Source: Bryobacterales bacterium
GTDB taxonomy: Bacteria > Acidobacteriota > Terriglobia > Bryobacterales > Bryobacteraceae
Assembly (NCBI GenBank): GCA_020847895.1
Contig: JADLBG010000642.1
Location: forward strand, 1-56,205
Direction of reading: 5' to 3'
Length of the DNA: 56,205 nt
Shown: in pieces, positions 23,539 through 51,206 of the stretch
How the letters are laid out: each line of letters begins with the position of its first letter
Numbering within the stretch: position 1 is the first letter of the stretch
Notes under the pieces: model-generated
What the model was told of the DNA's origin: nothing
The model's database searches: none
Seen by the model: only the letters and a program-made list of their open reading frames with translations
Made by a program: the position numbers and the translations under genes

Positions 23539-23585
<47 letters not shown>

Positions 23586-26346: not shown

Positions 26347-26352
26347 AATCCC

Positions 26353-26474: not shown

Positions 26475-26588
26475 AAGCCGGGACCGGTGGCGTCGGGACC
26501 CTTTTCGCGAGCCGCGCCGCGGGTAAAAGGATGGCACGCTCGGCGCAGCGGCAGCGCCGAAAAAGAGGTTGATGGGTTGATTCGGCGG

Positions 26589-27226: not shown

Positions 27227-27269
27227 AGTATCACCTCGTCATTCGAATTATACCAGCGAGACTTGACCC

Positions 27270-29544: not shown

Positions 29545-29579
29545 GCGCACTTCGACGCCGCTCATCCTATGGCACGCGC

Positions 29580-32551: not shown

Positions 32552-32609
32552 CGCATCACCTCCAGCGTCAAGACTAGACGCCGGATTTCAGAAACGCTCC
32601 ATGAAACCG

Positions 32610-35083: not shown

Positions 35084-35214
35084 CTCTTTAATTCTAAAAG
35101 CGCTGGTCCATCACTGGGTCATGGCCGTGTCACGAAATCGTCACGACAAAGTTCTTCCGGCTGGCACCGGACCGATCCCAGTTCGTCGTCAAGAAGAGGG
35201 GGTTGACGCTGGAT

Positions 35215-35240
35215 TATCAAGTAGCATATGCTACTTGATA
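35215..35240. promoter_or_regulatory. perfect 26-bp palindrome (candidate operator) between the HK gene and the HTH gene
   Basis: TATCAAGTAGCATATGCTACTTGATA reads identically on both strands. A TTGACG box at 35203-35208 lies just upstream. Confidence 0.6.
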
Positions 35241-35256
35241 TGACGAAAGGCCCGAC

Positions 35257-35805
35257 ATGGTGATCGACCAGAACAATCCTCAGTTCGTGAATTCCGACGT
35301 CATGCGCGCCACTGGCCTCACCATGGCGACCATCCAGACGTGGGTCAACCGGGGCCTCATCACGCCGGCGTCGGAGAAGAATCCTGGCCACGGGCAGCGG
35401 CGGTTCTACTCGTTGAAGAACATCATCTGGCTCACCGTCATGGCCCGCGTTACGGAGTGGGGCTTGCCCGTGTCGCTGGCCGCCGAGATCGCCGACGGCT
35501 TCGAAAGGATGTTTCAGGCGGACGTGCTGGACACGGCGAAGTGGCTCATGAACGAGCGCACGGGCGAGTTCCCGGAGTACGAGTCCTTTTGGGTGGCTAT
35601 CGGAAAAGACAAAGACGGCAAGTTCTATACGACGCAGCGGCCGTGGACAATCCGCAAGAAGGACGGCACTGCAGAGCAGAAGGCAAAGATGCGGGCGCAC
35701 AAGGGCGAGACCATCATGTTGATCATCGACCTCATGGGTGTGATCCACCCAGTTCTGCTCGAAGTGGAGCGCCTGCTTCAGGATCAGTCCGCTCAGTCGG
35801 AGTAA
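35257..35805 (+). CDS. MerR-like HTH protein
   Basis: N-terminus VMRATGLTMATIQTWVNRGLITP resembles a MerR-type HTH. The remainder is unrecognised. Confidence 0.45.
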   Translation: MVIDQNNPQFVNSDVMRATGLTMATIQTWVNRGLITPASEKNPGHGQRRFYSLKNIIWLTVMARVTEWGLPVSLAAEIADGFERMFQADVLDTAKWLMNERTGEFPEYESFWVAIGKDKDGKFYTTQRPWTIRKKDGTAEQKAKMRAHKGETIMLIIDLMGVIHPVLLEVERLLQDQSAQSE

Positions 35806-35855
35806 GCCCAAGTCCCGCGGGCAAAGCCGGGCCCACCCACAGGAGAAGTGTGTCC

Positions 35856-36230
35856 ATGCAATTCACCGGAGAACAACTGGAGAGCATTCTGCGGAAGCAG
35901 GTGGGCGCGGTCGAAGTCGTGGACTTCTCGGGACGGGTGCGTCTATCCGTTTCAGGAGCCGAAGTCGCAACCAGGATCATCCTCACCGGCTATGTCGGCG
36001 TCGGTAACCACAGCCGTATCCGGTACGTGAAGCCCGAAGGCGTCCGCTACCGGCCCGAGGAGTTCGCCTCGAAGCGCCAGGTGGAGGCTGATTTCCGCGA
36101 TGCTGCAGAAGTCCCGCGCGACGCCCAGATGAACCCTGTCGCCAAGGGCGCCAAGACCTGGCACCCGCAGCCGGCGCGTTCGAAGACCGGCCATGGCGGT
36201 TCGGTGGTCACGGTCTTCGTCAAGAGGTGA
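35856..36230 (+). CDS. hypothetical protein upstream of the portal gene
   Basis: ATG 35856 preceded by AGGAG. It is the 3' part of the long 35340 ORF; the upstream part overlaps the previous gene. Confidence 0.45.
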   Translation: MQFTGEQLESILRKQVGAVEVVDFSGRVRLSVSGAEVATRIILTGYVGVGNHSRIRYVKPEGVRYRPEEFASKRQVEADFRDAAEVPRDAQMNPVAKGAKTWHPQPARSKTGHGGSVVTVFVKR

Positions 36231-36236
36231 ATTGCG

Positions 36237-37649
36237 ATGCTGAACTGGTTGTTCAAATCCCGCTCGGCTGAGCGGAAGGAGATGGTGCGCTCGGGTGGCG
36301 AACTGGTCCGGGATCGGCGGAATATCGGGCTGTGGAACGATCCCATGCCCGACTATAGCCGTGTCGTTCCGAATCCGACGATCCGGAATCGCGCCCGGTA
36401 TCTGGCGGCCAACAGTCCTGTGGCCGCGCGAGCTGTCCAGGCGTTCGTGGATAACGTGGTGGGGCCCGGGATCACGCTGCTACCGAAGATCACGGACGCG
36501 GCTTTGAAGTCGGAGTTGCTCACAGTATGGAATGGCTGGACCGACTTGGCCGACCTCGATGGGCTGCTTAACTTCTACGGGCTTCAGGCACTGGCCGCCA
36601 GGATGATGTTCATCGACGGGGAGGTGTTCGTTCGGTATACGACGGACGCCGATGGCTCACTCCGCCTGCAATTGCTTCCCGCCGAGTTCATCGACACCAC
36701 GGTAAATATGGAGAACGTGATCGCGGGCGTCGAGTTCGATTCGGCTGGCCGGCGCGCCGCCTTCTACGTCTACGAATGGCATCCCGGCAACCTCCTCCGG
36801 CTGCCGAGGAGCACCCGCGTTCCCACTACGCAAATTGCGCAGATCTTCCGCCCGCTGCTCCCTGGGCAAGTACATGGAGTTTCAGCGTTGCTTCCAATCA
36901 TGCAGAAGTTGAACGACCTGGATCAGTTCGACCGCGCGACTCTGGTGAAGCAAAAGACGGGCGCTTTGCTGACCGGCTTCATCACTACGCCAAACGAGAA
37001 CCCGTTGGGAGCGGCACAGGCAGACGATGGTGCATGGACCGCCAGCCTGGAGCCGGGCACGATCCAACGCTTGTCGCCTGGCGAATCGCTGGAGTTTTCA
37101 GATCCGCCCGAGACGGGCGGGTACTCCGAGTACGCGAAAACGCAGTTGCGGCTGATCGCCAGCGGCCTTGGGTTGCCCTACAACATCTTGAGCGGCGACC
37201 TGTCGGATACGAGCTACTCATCCGCGCGCGTGGGTTTGATCGAATTCCGAAAGTACATCGACGCCGTGCAGTGGCAGTTCGTGCATGTGCTTTGCCGTCC
37301 GCTGTTTCAACGGTGGATCGAGATGGAAGTGGTGCGCGGCACGCTGCCGTTGCCGGAGAACGGCGTGCAGCAGTACATGCGCAACGTCTCGTGGGCGCCA
37401 CCGGCGATGCAGATGACCGATCCCCAGCGCGAAGTAGACGCCATGGTACGGGCCATCCGCGCAGGTTTGATGTCGAGGGAGATGGCAGTCGCTTCGTTGG
37501 GGTACGACCTGACGGAGGTGGACGCGCAGATCGCGTCCGGCAATGCCGCCACCGACGCCGCTGGGATCGTGTTGGACTCCGACCCGCGCCGGGTCACGCA
37601 GCAAGGCAACCGGCTGCCATCTGAGGAAATTTCTCAGATACCCGGTTAG
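36237..37649 (+). CDS. phage portal protein (lambda family)
   Basis: Size and N-terminal pattern RYLAANSPVAARAVQAFVDNVVGPGI... are typical of lambda-type portals. Position is upstream of the protease-capsid gene. Confidence 0.8.
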   Translation: MLNWLFKSRSAERKEMVRSGGELVRDRRNIGLWNDPMPDYSRVVPNPTIRNRARYLAANSPVAARAVQAFVDNVVGPGITLLPKITDAALKSELLTVWNGWTDLADLDGLLNFYGLQALAARMMFIDGEVFVRYTTDADGSLRLQLLPAEFIDTTVNMENVIAGVEFDSAGRRAAFYVYEWHPGNLLRLPRSTRVPTTQIAQIFRPLLPGQVHGVSALLPIMQKLNDLDQFDRATLVKQKTGALLTGFITTPNENPLGAAQADDGAWTASLEPGTIQRLSPGESLEFSDPPETGGYSEYAKTQLRLIASGLGLPYNILSGDLSDTSYSSARVGLIEFRKYIDAVQWQFVHVLCRPLFQRWIEMEVVRGTLPLPENGVQQYMRNVSWAPPAMQMTDPQREVDAMVRAIRAGLMSREMAVASLGYDLTEVDAQIASGNAATDAAGIVLDSDPRRVTQQGNRLPSEEISQIPG

Positions 37650-37755
37650 CTCGACTTGGGAAGTTCCCAAGTGACTATGGAAATTCCAGAGTGGGGGATT
37701 CCCCAGTCAAACCGCCCCGCCCGCACCGGCGGGGCTTCGCATTTTAAGGAGGTAC

Positions 37756-39501
37756 ATGAACGAATTCAAAATTCGCAGTGCAGCACTGGAGCCGTCCACC
37801 TTCGACGCGGAGAACCGCACCGTGTCGGTGGTGTTCGCCTCGAACGCGCCCGTCCGCAGGACGGATCTCGACGGCGCTTACCAGGAGCGGCTCGACATGA
37901 CGCAGGCCGCCGTGGATCTCTCGGAATTAATCGGCGGCCCCGTCCTCAACTCCCACAACCGTTCCGACGTGAACGCTGTGTTGGGCGTGGTGGAGTCCGC
38001 CCAGGTTGACGGCGAACGCGGCACCGCCACTATCCGCTTCAGCGAACGCGCCACGGCGGTGATGAATGACGTGCGCCAGGGCATCCTGCGCAAGCTGTCG
38101 GTGGGCTACGTGATCAACCAGCGCCGCGCCGAGAAGGATTCCACCAAGGGCATGCGCACGATTACCGCGACCCGCTGGACCCCGAAAGAAATCTCCTTCG
38201 TCGCCATCCCCGCGGACTCGGCGGCGAAGGTCAGAGGAGAAATGATGGACCACACCAACGAGAACGAAATCCGGGTGATCGCCCAGATCGCCGGCCTCCA
38301 GGCCGACGACATGATCGCCCGCAACCTGACCCTGGACCAGGCGCGCGCCGAAGCGTTCGAAGCCATAAAGCGCCGCTCCGGTTCTCCGATCCGTACGGCG
38401 CAGCCGATCTCGCTCGCCGCGGGCTACGACGACCCGGTATTCCTGCGCACCGCCATGGCGGACGCCATCTACACGAGGATTAACCCGGTGCACAAGCCCG
38501 GCGATGCGGCCCGGCCCTTCGTCGGGCGCAGCATGGTGCGGTTGGCGGAAGAGGTGCTGCGGTTGCGCGGCATCGAAATCATCGGCCTGTCCGACGGGGC
38601 GATTGTGGACCGCGCCCTCCACAGCACGAGCGATTTCCCCCTGCTGCTCGGCGACGTAGCGAACATGGTGCTGCAGGAGCAGATGTCCGCCGCGCCCGCA
38701 GCGATCAAACAGATCTGTCGCCAGACCACGATCCCGGACTTCCGCAACCGTTACTCGATCCAGTTGGGGCAGGCGCCCACGCTGATGAAGGTGAACGAGA
38801 ACGGCGAGTTCAAATCCGGCACCATCGCCGAAGGCCGCGAGTCGTACAAGCTGGACACCTACGGCCGGATCTTCGGCGTCAATCGGCAGGCCATCGTTAA
38901 CGACAACCTCTCGGCGTTCTCCGACATCGGCCGGTTGTTCGCTTCCGCCTCCGCGCAGTTTGAGGCGCAGTTCCTCGTGGACCTGATCACCGGCAACAAC
39001 GGCGTCGGGCCCGTCATGTCGGACAACAAGAAGTTGTTCGACGCCGCGCACAGCAACCTCGCTGCGAGCGGCGGCGCCATCTCCGACACCACGCTGGCTG
39101 CCGCGCGCCTGGCTCTCCGGTCGCAGAAGGGGCTGGACGGCAAGACCCCGCTCGACATCGCGGCCAAGTTCCTGGTGGTGCCCGCCGCCCTGGAAAGCAC
39201 CGCCGAGAAGTACCTCGCCAGCATCTACCCGGCGCAGGCCGCGAACGTAAACCCGTTCGCCGGCAAGTTGACCCTGGTCGTTGATCCGCGGCTCGACGCC
39301 AAGTCGGCCACCCGCTGGTACGTCGCCGCCGATCCCGTTTTGTTCCCGAGCATCGAGTACGCCTACCTCGCCGGTAACGAAGGCGTGCAGGTCGAGACGC
39401 GGGCCGGCTTCGAAGTTGACGGCGTGCAGATCCGTGCCCGTCTCGACTTCGGCGCGGGTGCCCTCGACTTCCGTGGCGTGTATGCCAACCCCGGAGCGTA
39501 G
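37756..39501 (+). CDS. prohead protease - major capsid protein fusion
   Basis: The N-terminal about 150 aa resemble HK97/U35-type prohead proteases. The C-terminal about 300 aa resemble Mu gpT-like major head proteins (SYKLDTYGRIFGVNRQAIVNDNLSAF). Confidence 0.7.
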   Translation: MNEFKIRSAALEPSTFDAENRTVSVVFASNAPVRRTDLDGAYQERLDMTQAAVDLSELIGGPVLNSHNRSDVNAVLGVVESAQVDGERGTATIRFSERATAVMNDVRQGILRKLSVGYVINQRRAEKDSTKGMRTITATRWTPKEISFVAIPADSAAKVRGEMMDHTNENEIRVIAQIAGLQADDMIARNLTLDQARAEAFEAIKRRSGSPIRTAQPISLAAGYDDPVFLRTAMADAIYTRINPVHKPGDAARPFVGRSMVRLAEEVLRLRGIEIIGLSDGAIVDRALHSTSDFPLLLGDVANMVLQEQMSAAPAAIKQICRQTTIPDFRNRYSIQLGQAPTLMKVNENGEFKSGTIAEGRESYKLDTYGRIFGVNRQAIVNDNLSAFSDIGRLFASASAQFEAQFLVDLITGNNGVGPVMSDNKKLFDAAHSNLAASGGAISDTTLAAARLALRSQKGLDGKTPLDIAAKFLVVPAALESTAEKYLASIYPAQAANVNPFAGKLTLVVDPRLDAKSATRWYVAADPVLFPSIEYAYLAGNEGVQVETRAGFEVDGVQIRARLDFGAGALDFRGVYANPGA

Positions 39502-39503
39502 CC

Positions 39504-39722
39504 ATGGCGCTCACGCTCATAGAGTTGCAGGGCATGCGTGATGCGCTGGTGACAGCGATCGGCAGCGGCACGATGCACATCCAGTTCGAGGGCCGCTCTA
39601 TTACGTACCGCAGCGTGGTGGAGATGCAGGCGGCCCTCACCACCATCAACAAGGAAATCGAGATGGCGGGCGGCGGCAGCACGTCGCCCCGCCAGATTGT
39701 CATCACACCGAAAGGAATCTGA
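39504..39722 (+). CDS. gpW-like head-tail joining/head completion protein
   Basis: 72 aa. The LIELQGMRDALVTAIGSG...ITYRSVVEMQAAL pattern resembles lambda gpW. Confidence 0.45.
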   Translation: MALTLIELQGMRDALVTAIGSGTMHIQFEGRSITYRSVVEMQAALTTINKEIEMAGGGSTSPRQIVITPKGI

Positions 39723-39726
39723 ACAG

Positions 39727-40077
39727 ATGAAGAACTTCGTGCAGGAAGGGAATACGATTACCGTCGCGGCGCCCGCCGACGTCACCAGCGGGCAGTTGGT
39801 CGTGGTCGGCTCTATTGTGGGCGTGGCGGCGTTTGATGCCGCGACCGGTGCCGACGTGGAGGTTACGTTGGAGGGTGTGTTCGAACTCCCCAAGGTCACC
39901 ACCGACGTGATCGCGCAGGGCGACCAGCTCTACTGGGACTCCGGCCAGGCGAAGCTCACGAAGACGGCGGGCACCGGCAGCAAGCCCATGGTGGGCGTGG
40001 CCACGGCCGCGGCCGGTAACGGCGTCACCACCGTCAACTGCCGGTTGATGCCCACCGGCCAGACTGGTCCCGCGTAG
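39727..40077 (+). CDS. DUF2190-type head decoration protein
   Basis: Start moved to MKNFVQEGN. ...VTSGQLVVVGSIVGVAAFDAATGADVEV...GVFELPK is characteristic of this family. Confidence 0.7.
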   Translation: MKNFVQEGNTITVAAPADVTSGQLVVVGSIVGVAAFDAATGADVEVTLEGVFELPKVTTDVIAQGDQLYWDSGQAKLTKTAGTGSKPMVGVATAAAGNGVTTVNCRLMPTGQTGPA

Positions 40078-40103
40078 ACCCATATCATCAAGATCTTTCC
40101 ATT

Positions 40104-40340
40104 TTGGCCAGAACACTTCGAGGGGACATGATCGACACGAAAGACCTGACGCCGGTGATGACGCTGAAGCAGGCCGCCGCCTACTTGCAGATCTCGAAGG
40201 CGCACCTGTCCAACGTGATTAACGGCAAGGTCGAAGACGTGCCGCCGCTCCGCTGCTTCCGGGTCGGGCGGCGCATCCTGATCAGGCGCGAATGGGTCGA
40301 GGAGTGGATGGAATCCGCCAACCTGGAGGCGATCCGGTAA
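40104..40340 (+). CDS. excisionase/AlpA-like HTH DNA-binding protein
   Basis: LKQAAAYLQISKAHLSNVING...FRVGRRILIRREWVEEW. Sits immediately upstream of the integrase gene. Confidence 0.6.
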   Translation: MARTLRGDMIDTKDLTPVMTLKQAAAYLQISKAHLSNVINGKVEDVPPLRCFRVGRRILIRREWVEEWMESANLEAIR

Positions 40341-40399
40341 TGGTAGTATTCGGGTCGTGCCAAGAGTTAACGCCTTCGACGCAGGAAAGAGGCAAGAAA

Positions 40400-41548
40400 G
40401 TGCGTCGAAAGCGTTTCCAGAAGGGCAGCCTGCAGCCGCGCAAACATGGGCGGCATCGCGTGTGGGTTGCCTCCTGGTGGGAAGACGGCAGCCGCCGGTC
40501 CAAGGTGCTCGGGTTGTGCTCGAAGATGACGAAGGGAGAGGCGGAGTCCGCAATGGCGACGATTCTCCAGCCGATCAACGAGGGCACGTCACGCGGGCCC
40601 AGGCCGGTGTACACGTTCGAGCAGTTCACGAAGGATGTGTACCTGCCGTTTTGCCGCCGCAGTTGGAAGGAATCAACCGCAGGTACGTCGGAGCAGATCG
40701 TCCAGAAGCATCTCGTCCCCGAGTTCGGGCAGGATTTGCTCCACACCATTCGCAGGGATCAATTGCAGGATTTCCTCGACCGGAAGGCCACGGAGTTGTC
40801 GTTCAGCGTGGTGGCCCATCTGCGGTGGTTCCTCAACGGCATCTTCAAATTGGCGTTATCGGACTCCATCATTTCGGGGAATCCGGCGGCCGAGTTGAAG
40901 GTCCCGAAGAAGTGCCAGCCCGGACGTGCGATGCGTCCGCTCACAGAAGAGGAGGTAAACACGTACCTGGAGGCGTTCGGCCTCCGGGAGAAGTTGATCG
41001 CAAGGCTCGCGATCTTCGAAGGCATGCGGCCGGGCGAGATCCTGGCCCTCCGATGGAAGTCGGTGGACGGCGAGATCATCCGGGTGGAGGAACGCGTCTA
41101 CAAGCGGAAGTTCAACACGCCGAAGAACGGCAAGACCCGCGAAGGCGCGATCTCCGACGGCACACTCGAGCTGTTGAGGCAGTGGGCCGATCTGGCGCAG
41201 GACCCGAGTCCGGATGGATTCTTGTTTCCGTCCGAGAAGGTCACGACGCCCATTTCACTCGACAACATCTGGCGGCGGAACATGTGTCCGGTGCTGGAGA
41301 AGATCGGGATGGAGTGGGCCACCTTTCAGGTGTTGCGCAAGACCAACGCCAGCCTGTCGAAGAAGGCGGGTGTCGATCCCAAGGTCGCCTCGGACCAGAG
41401 GGGCCACGGACTCGGCGTCAGCCTGGAGGTCTACACCAGCTCCGACCTGGAGCAGAAACGAGCCGCACTTCGGGCCCTCGAAGCCGCCGTACGGCGGAAG
41501 AGGAAGCCCAAACAGAAACAGCCGTCAGAATTGGCGAAGTCGGCTTAA
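40400..41548 (+). CDS. tyrosine-type site-specific integrase
   Basis: GTG 40400 (AGGAAAGAGG upstream) gives VRRKRFQKGSL. Catalytic-domain signatures are GMRPGEILALRW, LRKT, RGHGL...LEVYT. Confidence 0.9.
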   Translation: MRRKRFQKGSLQPRKHGRHRVWVASWWEDGSRRSKVLGLCSKMTKGEAESAMATILQPINEGTSRGPRPVYTFEQFTKDVYLPFCRRSWKESTAGTSEQIVQKHLVPEFGQDLLHTIRRDQLQDFLDRKATELSFSVVAHLRWFLNGIFKLALSDSIISGNPAAELKVPKKCQPGRAMRPLTEEEVNTYLEAFGLREKLIARLAIFEGMRPGEILALRWKSVDGEIIRVEERVYKRKFNTPKNGKTREGAISDGTLELLRQWADLAQDPSPDGFLFPSEKVTTPISLDNIWRRNMCPVLEKIGMEWATFQVLRKTNASLSKKAGVDPKVASDQRGHGLGVSLEVYTSSDLEQKRAALRALEAAVRRKRKPKQKQPSELAKSA

Positions 41549-41568
41549 TGGAGTAAACGGAGTAACGA
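41545..41568. repeat. tandem 9-mer motif copy 2 (TTA-ATGGAGTAA-ACGGAGTAA-CGA)
   Basis: Overlaps the integrase stop codon, 45 nt from att repeat B. Confidence 0.45.
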
Positions 41569-41613
41569 GGGGTCGGTGGGTTATCCCAAATTGGCTGTAA
41601 GTGCTAGAAAAGA

Positions 41614-41660
<47 letters not shown>

Positions 41661-41757
41661 CGACTGTGGATTGAAAATACAATCTTTACGCGTCTACGGT
41701 GTCAATGAATGGCGATAGAAAACACCCTGTTTTCATAAGCCTGCTTCAGACGCTCCG

Positions 41758-41780
41758 TTAATGGAGCAGTTTTGGAGCAG
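41758..41780. repeat. diverged tandem motif copy 3 (TTA-ATGGAGCAG-TT-TTGGAGCAG)
   Basis: Lies 97 nt inside att repeat B, the same offset as copy 1 relative to repeat A. Confidence 0.35.
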
Positions 41781-41902
41781 CTGATCAAACGCGGGCCGTG
41801 ATCTGCGACTGCCAACCTAACGAGCTTTAAGCTAGGCCGACTCCACTCGGTTTCGCCGGGCCGGACCGGGCGGCTTTTCAGCTGACAGCAACCTCAGTTG
41901 GT

Positions 41903-43255
41903 CTACGGTACCCTCGAAAAGCCGTATTCATAAACCCTGCCCGATGCTGTGATGATTTCAATATCCTCCAGAGCCGAGATCGATCCCGATGCGAGTTCCA
42001 GGGCCACACCACCGTGGAGCCGACGAAGTAACTCCGAGATCCCCAATACGCCAGCAATCAAACCGACAAACGGCACGCCAACAGTCCGTGAAGCCAGTTG
42101 CGTGATACCGCATCTGTCCAGACCAGGGAGTCTCGATGGTGTATAAGCGGGCGTGTCAGGCAGGTCTGCCGGATTGGCTGCCGACCACAGCTTTTCGGCG
42201 CGCAATGAACCAGGGAAAGTGTGGAGCGAAAAGTTCTTGAAGCTCTGTGGCCCAGATCCAAGCCCTGTTTCCACAATCAAACCAAACCCTGCCTGTTCTA
42301 GAGATGCGCGAGCTAACGCGTTGTCTACGCCGCAGAGCGCTACCGCTGGGTCATGTGGGCCGCGTCGTGACCAGGTCCCAAAAGGCTTCTCGTCCAAGAT
42401 CGTCCGAAACCCTCGCCGCTCGGACCATTTGGCCATAGCTCGTGCTTTCTTCTTGCCAACAATGTCGGGTGACGTCAGGACCGAGGTGCTGTCGTTCGCC
42501 ACCGCAACACGGTCGTGATCCTGCAGTACCAGTGTTAACTCCCGCGCGCCCCGATACGGGAGTGCGCCAAGAATCCATAGGTAGGCTTGTCCGAGGTTAC
42601 CCAGACCGATCAGCCAAAGAGCATTCGGGAGTAATTCGATTTTCGGCTCGCTTGGATCATCAAACAGCCAGTCGTTTCCGGGCTGCCAGAGGGACATGCC
42701 GGAAGATCGTCTACCGGCCAGGGCATGATCTCCAGAATGATAGAGAAACGCCTCAGCGGCGCAGGCGCAGGCGGCCAACACAGGGGCCAGCCCGGCAGCA
42801 TTTCGTTCCTCAAGCCTTTGCTCCTCGCGGATTGGAGTTACCCCGCCCCGCCAACCACTCCAAGTAAGCCTCCATCCCGTCTTTGAATTCTCCGTGACGG
42901 TCCCGATGCAGGCTACCGGGAACCCCTCACTTATCTCCGAGCAGCGCCCGCCAAGTTGACTGACCGCCTCCCCGAGAGTGTCCGCTTCCGCGACCGGAAT
43001 CATAAGTGGCGTGTCCAGGGAGCCCTCGACCGTGACTCCTCCGAGAAGGGTTCTACGGGTCACATTCACCAGCGTCAGCAAAGCAAGTTGATGGTCCCGT
43101 GATGTCCTCACTTCATCACCAACTCGAATCGAGAGACCATACTGTCGCAACATCCCTACGGCCTCTTGATGGCTCGTCGCTCGACCAGTATCCATAAAAT
43201 ACTTAGCTGTTCGATGGAGAGTGTCAGGTGTGACGCTAGCCCCAGAATCCAACAT
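41903..43255 (-). CDS. bilD: E1-like (ThiF/UBA-type) ubiquitin-activating enzyme homologue
   Basis: Rossmann motif LIGLGNLGQAYLW within a ThiF-like region. Last gene of the Ubl-E2-JAB-E1 operon; overlaps the JAB gene by 20 nt. Confidence 0.75.
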   Translation of the reverse strand: MLDSGASVTPDTLHRTAKYFMDTGRATSHQEAVGMLRQYGLSIRVGDEVRTSRDHQLALLTLVNVTRRTLLGGVTVEGSLDTPLMIPVAEADTLGEAVSQLGGRCSEISEGFPVACIGTVTENSKTGWRLTWSGWRGGVTPIREEQRLEERNAAGLAPVLAACACAAEAFLYHSGDHALAGRRSSGMSLWQPGNDWLFDDPSEPKIELLPNALWLIGLGNLGQAYLWILGALPYRGARELTLVLQDHDRVAVANDSTSVLTSPDIVGKKKARAMAKWSERRGFRTILDEKPFGTWSRRGPHDPAVALCGVDNALARASLEQAGFGLIVETGLGSGPQSFKNFSLHTFPGSLRAEKLWSAANPADLPDTPAYTPSRLPGLDRCGITQLASRTVGVPFVGLIAGVLGISELLRRLHGGVALELASGSISALEDIEIITASGRVYEYGFSRVP

Positions 43256-43757
43256 AAAAATACCTCCTCGTTAGCGGACCACTGAAATTGATCCACTCGT
43301 GACCACCGCGATATTCATAGATGCCAAGGCCGTTGTCCTCTGTCGGGAAACGGGCAAAATTCGGAACGATGATCGCAACGTGCCCAGGTGTCGCCACCAT
43401 GGGATTAGTACGATCGGAATAACTCTGAACTGCTGCCCCAGGATGAGTGTGAATGTCGGCAACAACAGAGAGTCCCCGTTCTCGACATATCTTCCAAAGC
43501 TTCGCAAAGGCGTCTCCATGGAGGATACATACGCCGGAGTTATAGGCACTCGGATCTAAGTCGTCGTAGAAGACCCTCTCAGTAATTTCGAGTCGCTGAG
43601 ATCTTTTCTTGCCAAGCAAGAACGCCCCAGCCTCGTGCCACCATTCACCCCGTTGCTGAAGTTCGTTCAGGAGCTGGAACCAGAACGACTTGGAACAGCT
43701 TATTCGATGTTCACGCGCAAGCAGCGCCCGTATAGTCGCTCGAATTGAGGAGATCAT
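43236..43757 (-). CDS. bilC: JAB/MPN (JAMM) metallopeptidase
   Basis: EAGAFLLG upstream Glu and the JAMM motif [17 protein letters not shown] (HxH-x7-S-xx-D). Confidence 0.85.
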
Positions 43758-44196
43758 AGATTTGCTCCAAGTAAGAAATCAGCCCTCGTGAAACATCCCA
43801 GAGCCTCCCTGGATGCTCGTGGTTCCAGTTGCTGTGCCCTTCAATCGCCATGCGATCACATGGCAGATAGAGGCACTGTGCTCCCTTCCACTCAGGCCGA
43901 AATATGGAGGGAATGATCGTCTTGCCCTTTGGCCAGCGGTGCGGTGGCAGTGGACGGTCCGTAGTGAGGTCCCAAGGCTGAGCTGTTGCCGCCATTTGGC
44001 GATATCCCGTGCACTCGAATCGCAATCCTACCTCGCGGACCGATTGGCCCCGCTCAGCCGTTGAGACTGCGATGACCACGTAAGGCCAGATCGTCCTGAC
44101 CAAACGCCAGCGACCTTCGATTTCGCCGAGCCTGAACTGGGGTGATTTCAAGTCTTCGGCAAGGAGTATTGAATCGGGCGAGGCCACACTCTGCAT
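43711..44196 (-). CDS. bilB: E2-like ubiquitin-conjugating enzyme homologue
   Basis: Start set at MQSVASPD (TGAtATG junction with the Ubl gene). Candidate catalytic Cys in LYLPCDR, preceded by a proline-rich loop. Position is between the Ubl and JAB genes. Confidence 0.55.
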
Positions 44197-44197
44197 A

Positions 44198-44689
44198 TCA
44201 GCCCTCAACTCGCTTTTCAGGAACCAAGTCGAAACAAACATCGCAGCCGCAGTTCCTAAGGAGCGTGCTCAGCGGGGTGTCGCTCGATGGCCTTTCCTTC
44301 GAGTCACAGACCTGAAGAATGTGTTCCGGAGCATCCTTGGAGTCGATGTGAAACTCTCTGGTCGCCCATTGCTTGATTGTTCGGACTCTCGTTCCTGGAG
44401 CGAACTTGCGCTCAGCCGTTTTCTCCAAGTAGTGCACTCGAACTTCGATCCGTTTGCAGTGATTTAGATGAATCCTGCACCCGTGTTTCAAGCCTTTATG
44501 TTCCTCTTCGCAGTCCTTCATGACCTCGTTATCTTCTTCATCAATGAAGATCCGCAGATTCTCGTCATCGAGAAGACCAGTGGTCAGGAGGGCAGCATAG
44601 AGGGCCGCTCCAGTGCGTCCGGCAGGAAGCGGTAGCTCGACGATTCGGGCATCTCGTCCGATGTGAACGAAAATAAATTCGGTGGGCAT
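44198..44689 (-). CDS. bilA: tandem beta-grasp ubiquitin-like protein ending in a free C-terminal Gly
   Basis: 163 aa (ISG15-like size). Two beta-grasp-sized halves. The sequence ends ...LVPEKRVEG-stop. Confidence 0.6.
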
Positions 44690-44794
44690 TGAACTCTCCT
44701 TGTGAACTTGCGCCCAAAACGGCGCTCTACTTGGTTCAACCGGGAGAGTCTGAAAACCGGAAATCGCAGAAGGACGATTTCAGTGCCGAGCTGG

Positions 44795-47700
44795 TTAAGC
44801 TCCTTCGCTGGAAGGGTTGTGAGCAGGACAGATGAAGAAGAATGGACATCGCGGGCATTCGCGATCGCTCCGCACAGGATGGAATCGGCCCTCGCGTATC
44901 CCTGTGATAGCTTCACCAAGCTTGCCGGTTTCGTTTGCGAGCTTCTTGGCGGACGCAGTCGAATCGCGGCGATCCCTAGTCAGGAGGGACACGTGGTGGA
45001 ACTCAACCTTGCGCCCCGGGTACTTCCTCTGGACAGCTTCTTGAATGGCAAAATATCGGAGCTTCCCCGATTCATCCTTGGCGAGGCTGGTCAGTTTCAG
45101 CCTATGAACCTCGATGGCAGTTGATAGCTGTCCGACATGGTCTGCCCGGCATGTCACGATGACATCGGTGCCCTGCACTGTCACCGTGAGCTCCAGGTCC
45201 AATGGGAGGGCTGTTCCGGTAATCAAGTCCGAAGCGTTTTCAGCTATCCGTTCAGCCGCTGCTCGGTAAATCTCCTCCATTGGATGACCAATCAAACGTC
45301 GATTCGCCCAATCGCCTTCAAGCTGCTTTGCCCGCCCGGCATCACGATCTGCTTTTGAAGGTGTCGATTGCATCCACGTAATCGTCCCCCGAATCGTACG
45401 ATGGAGATCCAGATAGGGTGTAGTCCTTCCTCCGCCATCAAGGTTTACGACGGCCTCATAGTAAAACCGCCGAGGACAGCTTAAGTAGGTTTCAAGTTCC
45501 GCGACTGACCACTTGTCTCGCTCGCTTGGTGGCCGAAAACGAACGCTTTCAGGCTCAGAGAGCCGGGACTTCGTCCAGTTCGGCTGGCCGTCCGGGGGCC
45601 TCGAAAGGTGATTTCCGATCTGGACCAAAAAGTCTGACGGTCCAACGCTCTTCCACGCACCTCCGCCGTAGGCCACTGCTCGCGAAAGATGCAGTTCGTT
45701 CATCGCCCGCGAGATCGCAACGAAGAAGAGACTCTCCTCCTCTGCCGCCCTCGACATCAGGGCATCTTCGTCTACGAGACCAGGAGGGAGGGTGTTCGGG
45801 TCTTCCCGGTTGTAGGGAAAATGGCGAGCGCTCAGCCAGGGTATGTGCACAATCGGAAACTGAAGCCCTTTGCTCGCATGTACCGTCATCATTCGCACAG
45901 CATCCAACCCAGCGGCTGCCGCCGGAAGCTGTCGCAGTTGCTTCTCCTCGTCTAGGATCTCCAAACGCCGGATGTGTTCGAGGAGGGCCTTCTTAGGGTC
46001 CTGCTTGTGTCCACTACGGAACGCAAATGCGAACTGCAAAAGCTGGTAGATGGCCAGTCGTTTTTGCTGACCTCCGACTGATCTGTCTTCGAAAATCTCC
46101 TTGAGAAAGGATTCATCTCGGAACATGAATCGGAGCAGAAAAGCGTGCGCCCGTGTCGCAAAACTAACCGGCCCCAAGTCTGACTTGAGGCGCTCTAGAC
46201 TAACCCTGGCTGAGGTCGAGATTGGCACTTCATCCAGCCTCCCGAGCGCAGCCAGCATGGTCACGTCATTCGTTCTCCGCCATTCACTCAACGCCTGAAG
46301 ATCCTCGATGGCGATCCGGTACTGGGGAAGCTGCGTAATGCGAAACATCCCAAGTCCCTGCTTCTCCGAGACGACTGACAGGAGCGAGAGAACTTCGCGA
46401 ATCTCGGCACGTTCGAAGAAGTCGCCAAAGTACAGACACGGTATCCCACTACTTTCGAGGTGCCTCGCAAGACGAACGAGGGAGCCGTGCGATCTGGCAA
46501 GAATCGTATGCCTTCCATAGCTGCCACCACGCTCTACGTCCGCCCGAATCTTCGCTGCAACGCCTTCGCACTCCGCCTCGACCGTACTAGCGATGTCGAG
46601 TTCCACGCTGCCGATAGACTCACCCCGCTGAGCTTCGAGTTTCACAGCTGAACCCAGCACCCGTGTAGTCATCGAACGTTCGAAGGTCTGAAAGGTGCGT
46701 ACGATGCGACCACCCGACCTGTAGTTCACACCGAGATCAGTCCCACTCGCTCCAGGGAAGTCGTCGGCGAAACGAGCCATGTTGAGCGGCGATCCGCCCC
46801 GAAACCGATAAATCGCCTGCTTAACATCGCCTACTACCCATGGACCCATACCTGGCTCAACCAAATCACGGAGGAAGAAGCCGCTGGCTCGATTCATGTC
46901 CTGGTACTCATCCACCAAAACATGCTTACGCTCCGCACGGACAAGGGCTCGTACATCAGGCTTTGCCCTCAGCAGTTCCACCGGGCGGGCGATGAGATCG
47001 CCGAAATCGACGAGCCCTTTGGCGTGCTTCGCGGCCTCGTAGACCTTGAATGCGCGTGCTACCTCAATCGCAGCTCGCCGGTCTGTTTCATCATCAATAC
47101 GAGTTGCGGCCTCATGATATTGCTCCGGCGTCACGAGTTCATCTTTTGCCCGCGATATCAACGCGAAGACGGTTCGCAGCTTTGCGACTGGTTCATAGAG
47201 GTCTAGATAGTGATCGAGTCCAATCTGGCCAGCAAGTTGCTCCAAAAGATCAAGCGAGCTGCTACGGTCAATGAGTCTCGGTTCGGGAAGCTCAATCTCA
47301 CTACCGTGCTTTCGCAACAGCTCAAGTCCAAACGCATGAAATGTCCCCACCCAGATACCAGCGGCCTTTTCCCGAAGCTCGGCCCGAATGCGCTTCGCCA
47401 AATCCTGAGCCGCAAAATTAGAGAACGTGAGAACAAGAATGGCACTCGGGTCCTCGCCATTCTGGATCAGCCATTTCACCCGACCGACTAGCGTGCGAGT
47501 CTTGCCCGTGCCGGGACCGGCTCCGACCCTAAATGGTACTCGCCCAGCCGTGATCGCTTTTACCTGAGTCGGATCAGGCTCAGGCTCTGGCTCCGAGCTT
47601 CTCGCTTCAACAGGTTCTTCAGGAAGGAGGAGAGCATCTGCGAGTTGTTGCAGAACGAGGTCGAGCGGCACCCCTACCACTCCCGCAATCTCCTCTGCAT

Positions 47701-48166
47701 TGAAGCTGCCACCCGAACTCAGCGCCCGAAGTTTTTCCCGAGGGAGAAGAAATTCTCTCGCGTACAAGTTTGCTTGGGCTTCGGCCCGTTCCTTGGGGCT
47801 ATAGGCATCAGATTCACCAACGAGTGACATCTCCGGTTCGGCTGGAGTGCCAAGGTCCAAATCGGACGAATCGCACTTGATCAGAACTTCGTCGAGCCAG
47901 AAGTGCGCATACTCATGCGCCACGTGAAATGCTGCTAACCGAGGATCGGTGACATTCGAATACAGGATCTTTTTCAGTTCGCGATCTAGCGCAGCCTCTG
48001 CGCCGTCAAGAAGCGCGTCACTAGCAGCACAGGCTTCACTTACGATCCCAGTCGTCTGGGCAGCGGCCATCAACAGTTCGCTCGCCGGCACGATTGCCGT
48101 GGCATCCGCACACAGCGAATAGTGCCTTAAGCGTGCCTGCTCTCGAACCTCTGCCCAGATGCTCAT
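44795..48166 (-). CDS. fusion protein: ImmA/IrrE-type metallopeptidase + UvrD/Rep SF1 helicase + C-terminal Cas4/AddB-like PD-(D/E)xK nuclease with a Cys cluster
   Basis: HEYAHFWL (HExxH) and AQANLYAREFLLP. Walker A GAGPGTGKT, DEYQD, VNYRSG, TVHASKGLQFP. C-terminus has YLSCPRRFYY ... CPRCPFFFICP. Confidence 0.85.
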   Translation of the reverse strand: MSIWAEVREQARLRHYSLCADATAIVPASELLMAAAQTTGIVSEACAASDALLDGAEAALDRELKKILYSNVTDPRLAAFHVAHEYAHFWLDEVLIKCDSSDLDLGTPAEPEMSLVGESDAYSPKERAEAQANLYAREFLLPREKLRALSSGGSFNAEEIAGVVGVPLDLVLQQLADALLLPEEPVEARSSEPEPEPDPTQVKAITAGRVPFRVGAGPGTGKTRTLVGRVKWLIQNGEDPSAILVLTFSNFAAQDLAKRIRAELREKAAGIWVGTFHAFGLELLRKHGSEIELPEPRLIDRSSSLDLLEQLAGQIGLDHYLDLYEPVAKLRTVFALISRAKDELVTPEQYHEAATRIDDETDRRAAIEVARAFKVYEAAKHAKGLVDFGDLIARPVELLRAKPDVRALVRAERKHVLVDEYQDMNRASGFFLRDLVEPGMGPWVVGDVKQAIYRFRGGSPLNMARFADDFPGASGTDLGVNYRSGGRIVRTFQTFERSMTTRVLGSAVKLEAQRGESIGSVELDIASTVEAECEGVAAKIRADVERGGSYGRHTILARSHGSLVRLARHLESSGIPCLYFGDFFERAEIREVLSLLSVVSEKQGLGMFRITQLPQYRIAIEDLQALSEWRRTNDVTMLAALGRLDEVPISTSARVSLERLKSDLGPVSFATRAHAFLLRFMFRDESFLKEIFEDRSVGGQQKRLAIYQLLQFAFAFRSGHKQDPKKALLEHIRRLEILDEEKQLRQLPAAAAGLDAVRMMTVHASKGLQFPIVHIPWLSARHFPYNREDPNTLPPGLVDEDALMSRAAEEESLFFVAISRAMNELHLSRAVAYGGGAWKSVGPSDFLVQIGNHLSRPPDGQPNWTKSRLSEPESVRFRPPSERDKWSVAELETYLSCPRRFYYEAVVNLDGGGRTTPYLDLHRTIRGTITWMQSTPSKADRDAGRAKQLEGDWANRRLIGHPMEEIYRAAAERIAENASDLITGTALPLDLELTVTVQGTDVIVTCRADHVGQLSTAIEVHRLKLTSLAKDESGKLRYFAIQEAVQRKYPGRKVEFHHVSLLTRDRRDSTASAKKLANETGKLGEAITGIREGRFHPVRSDRECPRCPFFFICPAHNPSSEGA

Positions 48167-48792
48167 TTGCTACTCCGCTTTTCATTCTCGACAATCCTAA
48201 TCCAGTAAGCCTTATCTTCATCTGAAAGCGTAGAGTTCCGAACGGCATCCAAGAAAGTTTCGGTGGTGGGCAACGGCCTCTGTTTTGCCTTGAATTGTGC
48301 GGCTGCATTACGTAGCGGCGGACCACCAGCTATCATGCTGCGAACTGCTTCTGCGGGAGCCTCAAGCTGCTCTCCCAGCACTTCGAAGAGATGGCCAGGC
48401 AACTCAGTTAGCCTTCTCAAATCAAGCTTCTTCACGAACTTCAAATCGAGTCGGACGTTGGCGGCCATCTTTTCGGCACTTATTCCGACTGCGGCGATTG
48501 CTTTCAGCAAGGTCCTCGCAGTGTCCCTCTTGGTAGGCTGAGGATTCTTTTCCCGTCGGTGTAGGATGTCGAGCGCGTGACTGACCGCAAGATTGGATAA
48601 ACGTTCAGCATCAATCTCCGGTTCCTCTAACCGTTCCGCCTGAATTGCCCACTGCGCAAAGAACTCCGACAGCTCCTGCTTGAATTGCGGATACTGTTCA
48701 ATCCAACGTGTCAACGCACGGTAGTTCGGCTCTGATTCCTCCAGCATGAGGGAATCTAGGATGTAATCAAAATCAACTGGCTGAGTATTCAT
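48163..48792 (-). CDS. hypothetical protein, possible HTH partner
   Basis: 209 aa. ATGA overlaps at both ends. The central LLKAIAAVGISAEKMAANVRLDLKFVKKL segment is HTH-like. Confidence 0.4.
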   Translation of the reverse strand: MNTQPVDFDYILDSLMLEESEPNYRALTRWIEQYPQFKQELSEFFAQWAIQAERLEEPEIDAERLSNLAVSHALDILHRREKNPQPTKRDTARTLLKAIAAVGISAEKMAANVRLDLKFVKKLDLRRLTELPGHLFEVLGEQLEAPAEAVRSMIAGGPPLRNAAAQFKAKQRPLPTTETFLDAVRNSTLSDEDKAYWIRIVENEKRSSK

Positions 48793-49628
48793 AGCTGCAC
48801 CCCAAGCGCTGTTCGTATGCTTTCAAGCCCTTTCATGATCCAATTTCTAATCTGGCGCGGTGAGACACCAAATCTCGTAGCTAGAGTCGGAACGTCGGCG
48901 TTCTCCGACTCGATAGGCCAGTCATGTCCATAGCGAAGCAGCAAGGCTTCAAAATGGCGGGGATCCTTTACGGCTGCGCGAGCCTTGTCGAGCATCTCCC
49001 GGCGGCTCGCCAAACTATCCAAGCGAAGCAACTCTTCAAGACCATTCAGCCTCAGGTCGGGAAGGTCGGACTCTTGCGTCGTAACACCGGTCGATAGGGA
49101 GACAGGCCGCAGGCGTTGAGCCTTCGCGACGAGTTTGATCGTCCTGCGTTTCACCGCTTCTGAAAACGCAACTTCTAGAAAATCACTCCCAAGCGAAGGC
49201 TGCTCCGCGAGGACAAATTCGATAATGTCCCGCTGAATCGTCTCTATGATTCTGTCCGCTTCGACCTGGCTGAAACCTCTCGCCCAACGAAGAACAACGG
49301 ACTGGACTCTCTTGCTTAACTCGAAGATCAGGTCCCCAGCCGTGTTACGGTCGTACCGCGCGACATACCGGATGAGATGGATAAGTACTTCGGCTGGAAG
49401 ATCCTTCTTCGCTTCCTGAACCCATCGCGTAGGATCGTCGCGGAATACGGATGCGATCCGCTCCTCAATATCTCGCCGCCTCACGTACACCTTGCCGTTC
49501 GGACGGAGGACCGTTAGCGGCGGAACATGGTACGCCCTGGCGGCACCGGGTGATGTCGGCAATAGGCTCATACTCTTTTCAACCGGCGGCCAGCCAATTC
49601 CGGAAGTCTTTCGTAAAGAAATTTTCAA
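48789..49628 (-). CDS. sigma-70/ECF-like factor homologue
   Basis: Region-4-like PTLATRFGVSPRQIRNWIMKGLESIR and a region-2-like helical block. Alternative start at MSLLPTS. Confidence 0.45.
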   Translation of the reverse strand: MKISLRKTSGIGWPPVEKSMSLLPTSPGAARAYHVPPLTVLRPNGKVYVRRRDIEERIASVFRDDPTRWVQEAKKDLPAEVLIHLIRYVARYDRNTAGDLIFELSKRVQSVVLRWARGFSQVEADRIIETIQRDIIEFVLAEQPSLGSDFLEVAFSEAVKRRTIKLVAKAQRLRPVSLSTGVTTQESDLPDLRLNGLEELLRLDSLASRREMLDKARAAVKDPRHFEALLLRYGHDWPIESENADVPTLATRFGVSPRQIRNWIMKGLESIRTALGVQL

Positions 49629-49767
49629 TCGAACGTTTCAGAAGACGCAAATGGCTTCCTTCCAATAGGTTAGCTCCGAGCGGATTCTGCCACTACTCTC
49701 CCGCCGGTGGCAGCGAAACAGGCACGACGCGAAAAGGGGGCAACGCTGCCGCAACCCATATGGGTAT

Positions 49768-49783
49768 TTACCCACATACCCAC
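49768..49783. repeat. iteron TTACCCACATACCCAC (copy 1 of 3 perfect copies)
   Basis: Identical 16-mers at 51269-51284 and 51548-51563. The adjacent palindrome is ACCCATATGGGT. Confidence 0.7.
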
Positions 49784-49800
49784 ATGGGGAGACATGCTTG

Positions 49801-50280
49801 CTACTTCACTCTGCGCGGCGCGTTTCCATTGATGTCGAACGCACGGAAGATGAGCTGGCCCACTTGGGCTTCGTACTCGCGGAACGCCTCTACATCTCCA
49901 TTCGAAGGTCGCTCAAGCCCAGCAAGTTTTTGTGCTGCTCGGAGAAATTCCGTCTTCTGCGCGAGGGCGGCAAGGAGGAGCCCTCGGTTGAAGATGCTGA
50001 ACTGAATATTGTGCCCGACGATGTCCGCTATGTCGCGAAGCATGTCGGTGATCTCCCGTTTCTCGTCGTATTCGAGGAGAGTCTTCAGATGGGCTAGCTT
50101 CTTTTTCCGGCTATCAATCGGACGCTTCACAGGTGGAATTGGAAGCTCCGTTACAGGGAGACTCGGTTGAGGCCTCTCCACGGGAGGTGGCTCTGGAAAG
50201 CGGGTTATTGCACCGCGCTGAAGGGTGCTCGTGAGATCAACCTTCGAAACTGCGTTCGAACGAAAACTTGGTTTTGACAT
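49801..50280 (-). CDS. hypothetical protein downstream of parA (possible centromere-binding partner)
   Basis: Lies 12 nt downstream of parA on the same strand. Pro-rich N-terminus, helical C-terminus. Assigned by position only. Confidence 0.35.
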   Translation of the reverse strand: MSKPSFRSNAVSKVDLTSTLQRGAITRFPEPPPVERPQPSLPVTELPIPPVKRPIDSRKKKLAHLKTLLEYDEKREITDMLRDIADIVGHNIQFSIFNRGLLLAALAQKTEFLRAAQKLAGLERPSNGDVEAFREYEAQVGQLIFRAFDINGNAPRRVK

Positions 50281-50291
50281 ACTCCCCTCCC

Positions 50292-51206
50292 CTACTCGTT
50301 CGCCGCACGTTTCTGTTCATCTGCTTGGCCGCGCGTCATGCCGAAGAGCGATTCGAAGTTCTTCAGCCGAGTCTCGATTTCCTCAGCCAGTGCTTCATAC
50401 TCGGCACAGGCGCGTGAATTCGCGCGATAGTCGAAAATGGTCTGCGCCGCGTACGGTGCCTCTTCTATCGCGATCGTCTTGCTGATGTGGTTTTGAAATC
50501 CGAGCTTGACCGTCTTCTTGTTTTCGAGAGTCGCCCGGAACTCTTCGTCTACAAACTGGACGATGTCCTTTGAGAGTCTCGTCCGGACATCAACCTCAGT
50601 GAGCACCACTCCTAAGAGCCGTCCCTCCGCACCAAATTGTTTCACTTGTAGAAGATCCTGAACCGCATCCGAAAGGGAGTCCATCGCGGTCTTCCCAGGA
50701 CGCGCTGTGAGGATGAACCAGGGGACGGTGTTGTAGGCGATAACGGTGGGTGTGGTCAGATTCGGCGCAGTGTCGACGAACACGTAATCGAAGGATGAGC
50801 GAAGGTCGGCAAGCGCTCGGGCAAAATTCTTTTCCGGTCGGATACTCGGACGCTGCGCAATGACTTGATCCAGGCTCTCAAGGCTTCGGCTCGCCGGTAT
50901 TATGGCAAATCGCTCGGGGAGATGAACGACAGCCTCGGTGCCGTTCAACAGGGTCTGGAACTCGGCCTTTATAATGCACTCACTGGCCTCGGCCTCTCCC
51001 GTGAAGATGTCGAACGTGGAGCGGAATGCTTCCTCAGGAACGGAGAACGTACGAGTCAGGCCGCGGTTGTTATCAACGTCGACAAGGCAAACCGACCTGC
51101 CCTTTCGCGCGAGGGCGGCGGCGACGTTGATCGTCGTGGTCGTTTTCCCGACACCCCCTTTTTGGTTCCCGAAGGCGATGAGCCTTCCGAGTGCTGGTCT
51201 GGCCAT
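50292..51206 (-). CDS. parA: ParA/Soj-family partition ATPase
   Basis: Deviant Walker A GNQKGGVGKTTT. DVDNNRGLT; VFVDTAPN. Confidence 0.9.
   Translation of the reverse strand: MARPALGRLIAFGNQKGGVGKTTTTINVAAALARKGRSVCLVDVDNNRGLTRTFSVPEEAFRSTFDIFTGEAEASECIIKAEFQTLLNGTEAVVHLPERFAIIPASRSLESLDQVIAQRPSIRPEKNFARALADLRSSFDYVFVDTAPNLTTPTVIAYNTVPWFILTARPGKTAMDSLSDAVQDLLQVKQFGAEGRLLGVVLTEVDVRTRLSKDIVQFVDEEFRATLENKKTVKLGFQNHISKTIAIEEAPYAAQTIFDYRANSRACAEYEALAEEIETRLKNFESLFGMTRGQADEQKRAANE

Follow-up and report, generated by a model that had tools for sequence, protein, structure and literature searches.

The bilABCD operon and its catalytic residues

The DNA analysed here is a stretch of 56,205 nucleotides (nt), positions 1 to 56,205 of contig JADLBG010000642.1 (assembly GCA_020847895.1; hereafter the window). 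The subject of this report is an operon on its minus strand with the gene content of the bacterial ISG15-like (Bil) antiphage systems, together with three genes that precede it. The operon opens with bilA (44198..44689), which is preceded by the ribosome-binding site AAGGAGAG and encodes a protein of 163 amino acids (aa) with two tandem beta-grasp domains, ending in ...KRVEG-stop with a free C-terminal Gly163. There follow, all on the minus strand, bilB (43711..44196), encoding a 161-aa E2-like conjugating enzyme with the candidate catalytic Cys113 in the motif LYLPCDR; bilC (43236..43757), encoding a 173-aa JAB/JAMM metallopeptidase (deconjugase) with E42, H103, H105, S112 and D115, its JAMM motif beginning at residue 103; and bilD (41903..43255), encoding a 450-aa E1-like adenylating enzyme with the Gly-rich loop G217-L-G219-N-L-G222 (GLGNLGQ from residue 217) and the candidate catalytic Cys382. 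An alternative start of bilB at 44241 would give a product of 176 aa, and the residue numbers used here are those of the 161-aa form, the length of nearly all homologues. The bilA and bilB genes meet at TGAtATG, bilB and bilC overlap by 47 nt and bilC and bilD by 20 nt. A sequence-only reading of this DNA had described four tightly packed minus-strand genes with these junctions, and all four open reading frames (ORFs) and the three junctions were found as it had described them.

The same reading had named the products a tandem beta-grasp protein with a free terminal Gly, an E2-like protein, a JAMM peptidase and an E1-like protein, and had likened their composition and order to Bil. Profile searches bore this out. 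Full-length matches to the PADLOC models were obtained for all four proteins, with expect values (E) of 3.5e-46 for BilA (profile positions 6-162 of 162), 2e-61 for BilB (full length), 2.8e-65 for BilC (full length) and 7e-160 for BilD (profile positions 5-448 of 453). In Pfam, BilB matched DUF7665/BilB-like (E 3.5e-58), BilC matched Prok-JAB, and BilD gave a weak ThiF match (E 0.0012) that falls under the curated cut-off. Newer Pfam names are attached to an identical copy from an independent contig, PF27055 BilA_UBL_2 for BilA and BilB-like for BilB, while no NCBIfam model matched any of the four proteins. A database protein of 264 aa (P0017), recorded from the 56205-base contig, coincides with part of BilD at 100% identity; the 450-aa ORF is intact, and it seems that bilD was truncated in the source annotation.

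When BilA, BilB and BilD were searched against the PDB with phmmer, no sequence match was found, and we therefore compared predicted folds. The AlphaFold2 model of BilA (mean predicted local distance difference test score, pLDDT, 90.9) contains two beta-grasp units, and its top 50 PDB fold matches are linear di-ubiquitin, ISG15, FAT10 and the OASL tandem ubiquitin-like domains, each over about 155-170 columns. The model of BilB (pLDDT 84.8) is UBC-like; its three best fold matches are bacterial BilB E2 chains of an E1-E2-Ubl complex (8tz0 and 8tyz, including 8tz0_C and 8tyz_C; Ubl, ubiquitin-like protein), followed by the eukaryotic E2s UbcH7, Ubc12, UBE2W and UbcH8. These predicted folds, di-ubiquitin/ISG15-like for BilA and UBC-like for BilB, agree with the Bil assignment and are those that the sequence-only reading had proposed to look for. 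BilC could be placed by sequence: it matched 8tyx_B, the deubiquitinase BilC of Ensifer aridi, with E 5.4e-11, and its E42 and D115 align with chain positions E33 and D106, which are residues mutated in the Ensifer protein.

The residues expected to carry the chemistry are conserved among the homologues. BilA ends in R[VI]EG-stop in 69 of 71 homologues, the other two having overhangs of 2 and 8 aa past the Gly; short overhangs of this kind are described in the literature. C113 and H121 of BilB are at least 97% conserved (69 sequences), as are E42, H103, H105, S112 and D115 of BilC (72 sequences). In BilD, C382 and the glycine loop (G217, G219, G222) show no variation among 25 sequences, and their conservation stays at 97% or above when 75 are compared. 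Loss of the Cys or of the terminal Gly among homologues, which would have spoken against the sequence-only reading, was thus not seen. In the Collimonas system the substitutions BilA G163A/L, BilB C113A, BilD G219A and BilD C385A abolished defence, and an active-site substitution in BilC impaired it (Millman 2022; Hor 2023/2024). The window equivalents of G163, C113, G219 and C385 are BilA G163, BilB C113, BilD G219 and BilD C382. Family membership, intact ORFs, conserved catalytic residues and predicted folds are all computed here for the window's own genes.

A scan with a BilD alignment, taking one genome per species, returned 80 loci. About 71 of these preserve the order bilA-bilB-bilC-bilD, and contig ends interrupt the others. 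Collimonas and Caulobacter, both of them genera with validated systems, are represented, and the closest genome matches are metagenome-assembled genomes of Bryobacterales (Acidobacteriota) at about 71% identity. Viral contigs of IMG/VR contained no BilD relatives and, of the upstream genes described below, only generic UvrD helicases (at most about 30% identity) and one contig-end fragment; there is accordingly no sign of a phage-borne system in that collection.

From these sequence comparisons, the four genes very probably constitute an intact Type I BilABCD antiphage system. The Type I system of Collimonas sp. OK412 (Millman 2022; Hor 2023/2024) shares with the window the gene order, a 163-aa two-domain BilA with Gly163, the JAMM peptidase, BilB Cys113 and BilD Gly219, and differs in the number of the catalytic Cys of BilD (385 as against 382). 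Identity to a Collimonas relative runs from about 48% (BilA) to 54% (BilD). The Collimonas host belongs to the Proteobacteria, whereas the host of the window is probably one of the Acidobacteriota and its Bil is known from sequence alone. Likeness also extends to the eukaryotic ISG15/UBA7/UBE2L6 pathway, in which, as in Bil, a Ubl of two domains ending in Gly passes from E1 to E2 by thioester relay and serves antiviral defence; sequence identity to ISG15 is about 12-15%, and the window has no E3 and a JAMM deconjugase in place of a USP18-type cysteine protease.

Some points weigh against the identification as Type I Bil: identity to the validated genera is only about 48-54%, three of the four proteins lack a sequence match to any solved structure, and an assignment made on the sequence of the window does not allow the phage target to be inferred. 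A different Ubl family could be considered, namely Type II Bil (CEHH/6C), Bub (6E/DUF6527) or the Cap2/Cap3 proteins of the Type II cyclic oligonucleotide-based antiphage signalling system (CBASS), since E1, E2, JAB and Ubl parts are common to all of them. The Type II BilABCD of Ensifer aridi TW10 (CEHH/6C; Chambers 2023/2024; 8tyx, 8tyz, 8tz0) has the same four roles in the same order, its BilC is detectably homologous to that of the window (E 5e-11), and its solved E2 is the closest solved fold of the window's BilB. BilA, BilB and BilD, however, found no sequence match among the Ensifer chains, only BilC did, and the best full-length matches are to the PADLOC Bil models. Moreover, a single beta-grasp domain is usual for Type II BilA, and BilC must often trim residues that follow its Gly, whereas the BilA of the window has two domains and a free Gly, the Type I architecture. 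Because of this two-domain, 163-aa BilA with its free Gly and the absence of sequence matches of BilA, BilB and BilD to the Ensifer chains, we assign the operon to Type I rather than Type II.

Bub operons (Ye et al. 2024 preprint) are likewise Ubl operons with E1/E2 conjugation, but they work through Tyr and Ser oxyester intermediates and a DUF6527 serine protease, whereas the window has a cysteine-bearing E1 and E2 and a JAMM peptidase. No DUF6527 protein was found with Pfam, C113 and C382 are conserved in the E2 and E1, and Bub was rejected. A CBASS accessory was rejected as well: E1 and E2 are separate proteins, and a Pfam scan of the neighbouring ORFs returned no CD-NTase family. Taken together, membership in any of these other Ubl families is very improbable. 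A sulfur-carrier cluster of the MoaD/ThiS type, with BilD as a MoeB/ThiF-like adenylyltransferase, is barely credible: the sub-threshold ThiF match and public records that label homologues 'ThiF family adenylyltransferase' speak for it, but it is excluded by the presence of a UBC-like E2 and a JAMM peptidase, by a Ubl that is predicted as a double ubiquitin fold with ISG15 and di-ubiquitin as its best matches, and by the neighbours in 61 of 62 relatives, which are the sigma/HTH/helicase genes described below and never MoaE, ThiG or rhodanese genes. The sequence-only reading had held that such a biosynthetic context in relatives would tell against it, and none was encountered.

By homology with the Collimonas and Ensifer work, from which any activity, target and phenotype of the window's system would have to be drawn, BilD would adenylate Gly163 of BilA and take it up as a thioester on Cys382. 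BilA would then be handed to Cys113 of BilB, which would join it to lysines of a phage structural protein, and BilC would strip or edit the conjugates. No C-terminal trimming should be needed, because BilA already terminates in Gly. With the coliphages that have been studied, the conjugation target is the central tail fibre, and the virions produced are tailless or poorly infective or non-infective. In published work, the four genes driven by pBAD were enough to protect E. coli.

A three-gene module upstream of bilA

Directly upstream of bilA and on the same strand, after a gap of 105 nt, lie three further genes (hereafter the trio). Nearest to bilA is a gene (44795..48166, minus strand) for a 1123-aa fusion protein with the Pfam domains Peptidase_M78, UvrD-helicase, UvrD_C and PDDEXK_1. 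Its motifs are HEYAH at residue 84 (ImmA/IrrE-type M78 peptidase), GPGTGKT at 217 and DEYQD at 419 (UvrD-type superfamily 1 helicase), followed by a Cas4/AddB-like PD-(D/E)XK nuclease with four Cys (897, 1104, 1107 and 1113). Across 17 diverse homologues no change was seen in the HExxH motif, the Walker A motif, DEYQD or the four Cys. The middle gene (48163..48792, minus strand) overlaps both neighbours by 4 nt and encodes a 209-aa protein with a weak XRE-type helix-turn-helix (HTH) signal in mid-protein. The first gene (48789..49571, minus strand) encodes a divergent 260-aa protein resembling sigma factors of the extracytoplasmic function (ECF) type. Its start is placed at the ATG at 49571 rather than at the TTG at 49628 given by the ORF lister, and a gene call of 260 aa is present on an independent contig.

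Iterative searches found all three families in 64 of the 80 loci. Linkage could be evaluated where bilA was present together with at least 4.9 kb of upstream sequence, and under this definition the full trio was found in 61 of 62 loci, the remaining one having a remnant. The trio-linked loci span the Acidobacteriota, the Planctomycetota and the Alpha-, Beta- and Gammaproteobacteria. In six loci (L047, L056, L057 and L065-067) the trio lies on the opposite side and strand, with linkage retained. The functional unit probably comprises seven genes, not four, and the sequence-only reading missed the trio.

The assignments of the two smaller proteins come from profile comparisons. The profile of the sigma-like family matched SigE/RpoE structures with E 0.03 across regions 2 and 4, and members of the family matched Sigma70_r4_2 and Sigma70_r4 at 2e-6. 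Alignment of the family with E. coli RpoE by hhalign yielded E 4e-4 over 176 columns. One public record annotates a homologue as 'RNA polymerase subunit sigma-24'. For the 209-aa family, 4 of 14 members matched HTH_31 or HTH_3 at about 1e-3, the window copy having no Pfam match, and the family profile matched the 434 repressor with E 0.03.

We searched the Bil and Bub literature and found the trio described nowhere and the helicase never mentioned, many subscription papers lying outside the coverage of the search. The regulators named in the Bil and Bub papers are CapW, CapH+CapP and CapK+CapS. In CapH+CapP a separate M78 peptidase stands beside an XRE-family HTH repressor, usually divergent from the immune operon that the two regulate, and ImmR/ImmA and DdrO/IrrE (PprI) are comparable pairs; the trio, with its invariant HExxH motif and its weak HTH signal, may be related to them. 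It departs from the CapH+CapP type in that its peptidase forms one protein with a UvrD helicase and a Cas4-like nuclease, in its extra sigma-like partner and in being co-directional with the operon, not divergent from it. About 15% of Type II Bil operons carry a divergent CapH/CapP, whereas the window carries the trio instead.

A shared promoter-like motif and the possible role of the trio

A bipartite promoter-like motif, TTCCGGTTTT-N12-GGTTGAAC, lies upstream of bilA (44734..44762, minus strand), and a second copy, TTCCGGAATT-N12-GGTTGAAAA, lies upstream of the sigma-like gene (49576..49605, minus strand). Across most loci the element sits about 65-78 nt upstream of the bilA ATG and is unlike the sigma-70 consensus. 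In most loci it reads TTCCG(G/C)TTTT-N12-CATCGCT; the form TTCCGG...-N-GGTTGAAC is confined to the window and a few loci whose sigma-like protein is BLAST-detectable from that of the window, with CATCGCT in the others, and the second half of the motif thus co-varies with the clade of the sigma-like protein. Regular expressions for the motif gave 71 matches in 2.35 Mb, of which 64 precede one of two genes, bilA (31) or the sigma-like gene (33). All 16 loci that were matched at both sites have the same motif variant at the two. Only 5 nt separate the end of the second copy from the start codon (ATG) of the sigma-like gene, whose transcript may accordingly be leaderless; L001 and L007 show the same arrangement. 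A scan of 41500-50400 for sigma-70 promoter and intrinsic terminator consensus sequences found fewer sites than in shuffles.

The leader of bilA contains, between the motif and the ribosome-binding site, a GC-rich hairpin (44710..44725, minus strand; GCGCC-GTTTTG-GGCGC). A hairpin is present at this place in most of 70 loci, with differing stem sequences and a mean z of -2.2 against shuffles; either an RNA element or a palindromic operator is conceivable. The leaders of many loci also have an outer stem, in which a pyrimidine tract pairs with the Shine-Dalgarno sequence. Separately, an imperfect long palindrome, CCCATGTGGGTATGTGGGTAAATACCCATATGGG, lies at 49755-49788 between a 159-aa ORF and the sigma-like gene and is operator-like.

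The trio is also found away from Type I Bil. Taken from the helicase side, the association was sampled in plasmids, where the helicase family was detected at 80% or more query coverage in 67 records and BilD in 28. We inspected six helicase-bearing plasmids that had no Type I BilD match. What comes after the trio is a Type II Bub operon (multiubiquitin, ThiF, DUF6527) on four of them, a set of four genes resembling Bil on a fifth and an insertion sequence on the sixth. The trio stands directly before the Bub operon in Acinetobacter lwoffii pNL1 (L162), Klebsiella pneumoniae pKP19-2581 (L163), Agrobacterium tumefaciens (L165) and Leptolyngbya (L166). The K. pneumoniae plasmid is conjugative and clinical. 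On plasmid p1 of Paraburkholderia caffeinilytica (L161, 6267-7317) a stand-alone HTH regulator and an ImmA/IrrE peptidase, co-directional with the operon, occupy the position of the trio directly upstream of a validated Bil. Comparison of the helicase and HTH-like families with these two proteins by hhalign gave core-motif similarity only, and that between the peptidase and the window's fusion is limited to the HExxH core.

These arrangements are consistent with a model in which trio and operon form one seven-gene unit, with the operon as its downstream part and the trio as sensor and regulator, a model that we consider about evenly balanced. The M78/UvrD/nuclease fusion would sense phage or damaged DNA and would cleave its 209-aa HTH-like partner, and the sigma-like protein would be released in consequence. 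Driven by the freed protein, transcription of bilABCD and of the sigma-like gene's own operon would then start from the bipartite motif that the two have in common. Such a release would parallel those of ImmA/ImmR, IrrE/DdrO and CapP/CapH. We put forward more tentatively, as somewhat short of an even chance, the wider proposal that Type I Bil and many Type II Bub operons alike are switched on by this undescribed trio, with a DNA-sensing fusion that frees an ECF-like sigma factor acting at a shared, co-varying promoter.

Several observations count against a regulatory role for the trio. The sigma-like and XRE-like assignments are statistically weak (E 0.03 to 4e-4; hhalign probabilities of 35% and 4.5%), and the window's own 209-aa protein has no Pfam match. 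The motif expressions were derived from bilA upstream regions, which makes the bilA counts partly circular, while the matches at the sigma-like gene are independent. A helicase-nuclease of 1123 aa with all of its catalytic residues conserved would be costly for a mere regulator and could be an effector. In addition, the four genes defend E. coli when expressed from pBAD, which means that the trio is not needed for the chemistry.

Alternatively, the trio could be an independent helicase-nuclease module for defence or DNA repair, with AddA/RecB- or Gabija-like logic, co-inherited with Ubl operons for synergy. The defence given by bilABCD alone under pBAD speaks for this. All three catalytic parts of the fusion (peptidase, helicase and nuclease) keep invariant motifs, the Fe-S cysteines among them, the best PADLOC matches of the fusion are GajB-type UvrD helicases, and the helicase family occurs in more plasmid records than BilD does. 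Nevertheless, every inspected plasmid copy without a Type I BilD stands before a Ubl operon (Bub or Bil-like) or an insertion-sequence disruption, and none stands alone. The first gene of the trio is sigma-like, both operons are preceded by the same motif in matching variants, and in P. caffeinilytica an HTH and M78 pair without a helicase takes the same position. We regard an independent module as unlikely, though far from negligible.

If the sensor-regulator model is correct, the trio would be a fourth family of regulators for Ubl systems, after CapW, CapH+CapP and CapK+CapS. Studies of Bil have used four genes placed behind an arabinose-inducible promoter, and the linkage of the trio, the motif and the reuse of the trio before Bub operons together offer a testable hypothesis for the natural input step. 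They also suggest that the published four-gene definition is incomplete. Taken alone, the operon adds one more Type I Bil, in an under-sampled phylum, and its interest is modest; the conserved seven-gene architecture and the motif are the more notable.

Attachment sites and probable neighbouring islands

The Bil operon ends beside an attachment (att) site. A 46-nt repeat (att copy 2; 41614..41659, minus strand) lies 244 nt from the bilD stop, and the same 46 nt with one mismatch recur at 23539..23584 (att copy 1, minus strand); no occurrence of a 46-nt repeat at one mismatch is expected by chance. Read on the minus strand, copy 2 runs from the anticodon loop (TT-CCC-AA) through the 3' anticodon stem, the variable loop and the T-arm to the acceptor end with CCA. 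From this reading of the sequence and by comparison with E. coli glyU, we take it to be the 3' part of a tRNA-Gly(CCC) gene; Rfam at a permissive threshold scores only its T-arm. No intact tRNA gene was found in the window with ARAGORN or Rfam, and a tRNA 5' half adjoins neither att copy. None of the 80 related loci contains the att core, and the insertion site of Bil is therefore not conserved.

Between the two copies lies a phage-like element of 18 kb (23585-41613), bounded on its left by att copy 1. It carries genes for a D5-type primase (23965-26346), a large terminase subunit (27736-29544), a lambda-type portal protein (36237-37649) and a prohead-protease/capsid fusion (37756-39501), and at its right end, between the att copies, an integrase gene (40292-41548). 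The element is small for a complete phage, and a histidine kinase gene (33293-35083, minus strand) lies within it. A near-identical 22-nt string, TTAATGGAGTAAA[T/C]GGAGTAAC, occurs at 23684-23705, about 100 nt to the high-coordinate side of att copy 1, and at 41545-41566, about 50 nt to the low-coordinate side of att copy 2; the two strings may be arm sites of the integrase.

The sequence-only reading had placed the operon at the edge of an integrated element beside a tRNA-derived att site. The att site is real, but the operon lies outside the integrase-bearing element, across att copy 2 from it. At this boundary the GC content drops from about 0.62 to about 0.55, and a weak resemblance links the two sequences just past the att copies. 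When an incoming element displaces the 3' fragment of a tRNA gene, the fragment comes to lie on the downstream side of that element in the sense of the tRNA. The DNA above 41660 should for this reason be an inserted island, and the GC step and the weak resemblance fit this. The Bil operon most likely occupies the distal end of this second, tandem, lower-GC island, the tRNA-proximal end of which is to be expected beyond 56205. Two direct att copies without an intact tRNA gene imply tandem islands at one tRNA gene, and the intact gene itself would also be expected there.

Other genes of the island type are a ParA/MinD-like ATPase gene (50292-51206), a gene for a PIN_8-domain protein (53274-54599) and an AAA_15/DUF3696 ATPase gene (19476-20882), the last of a kind seen in defence loci.

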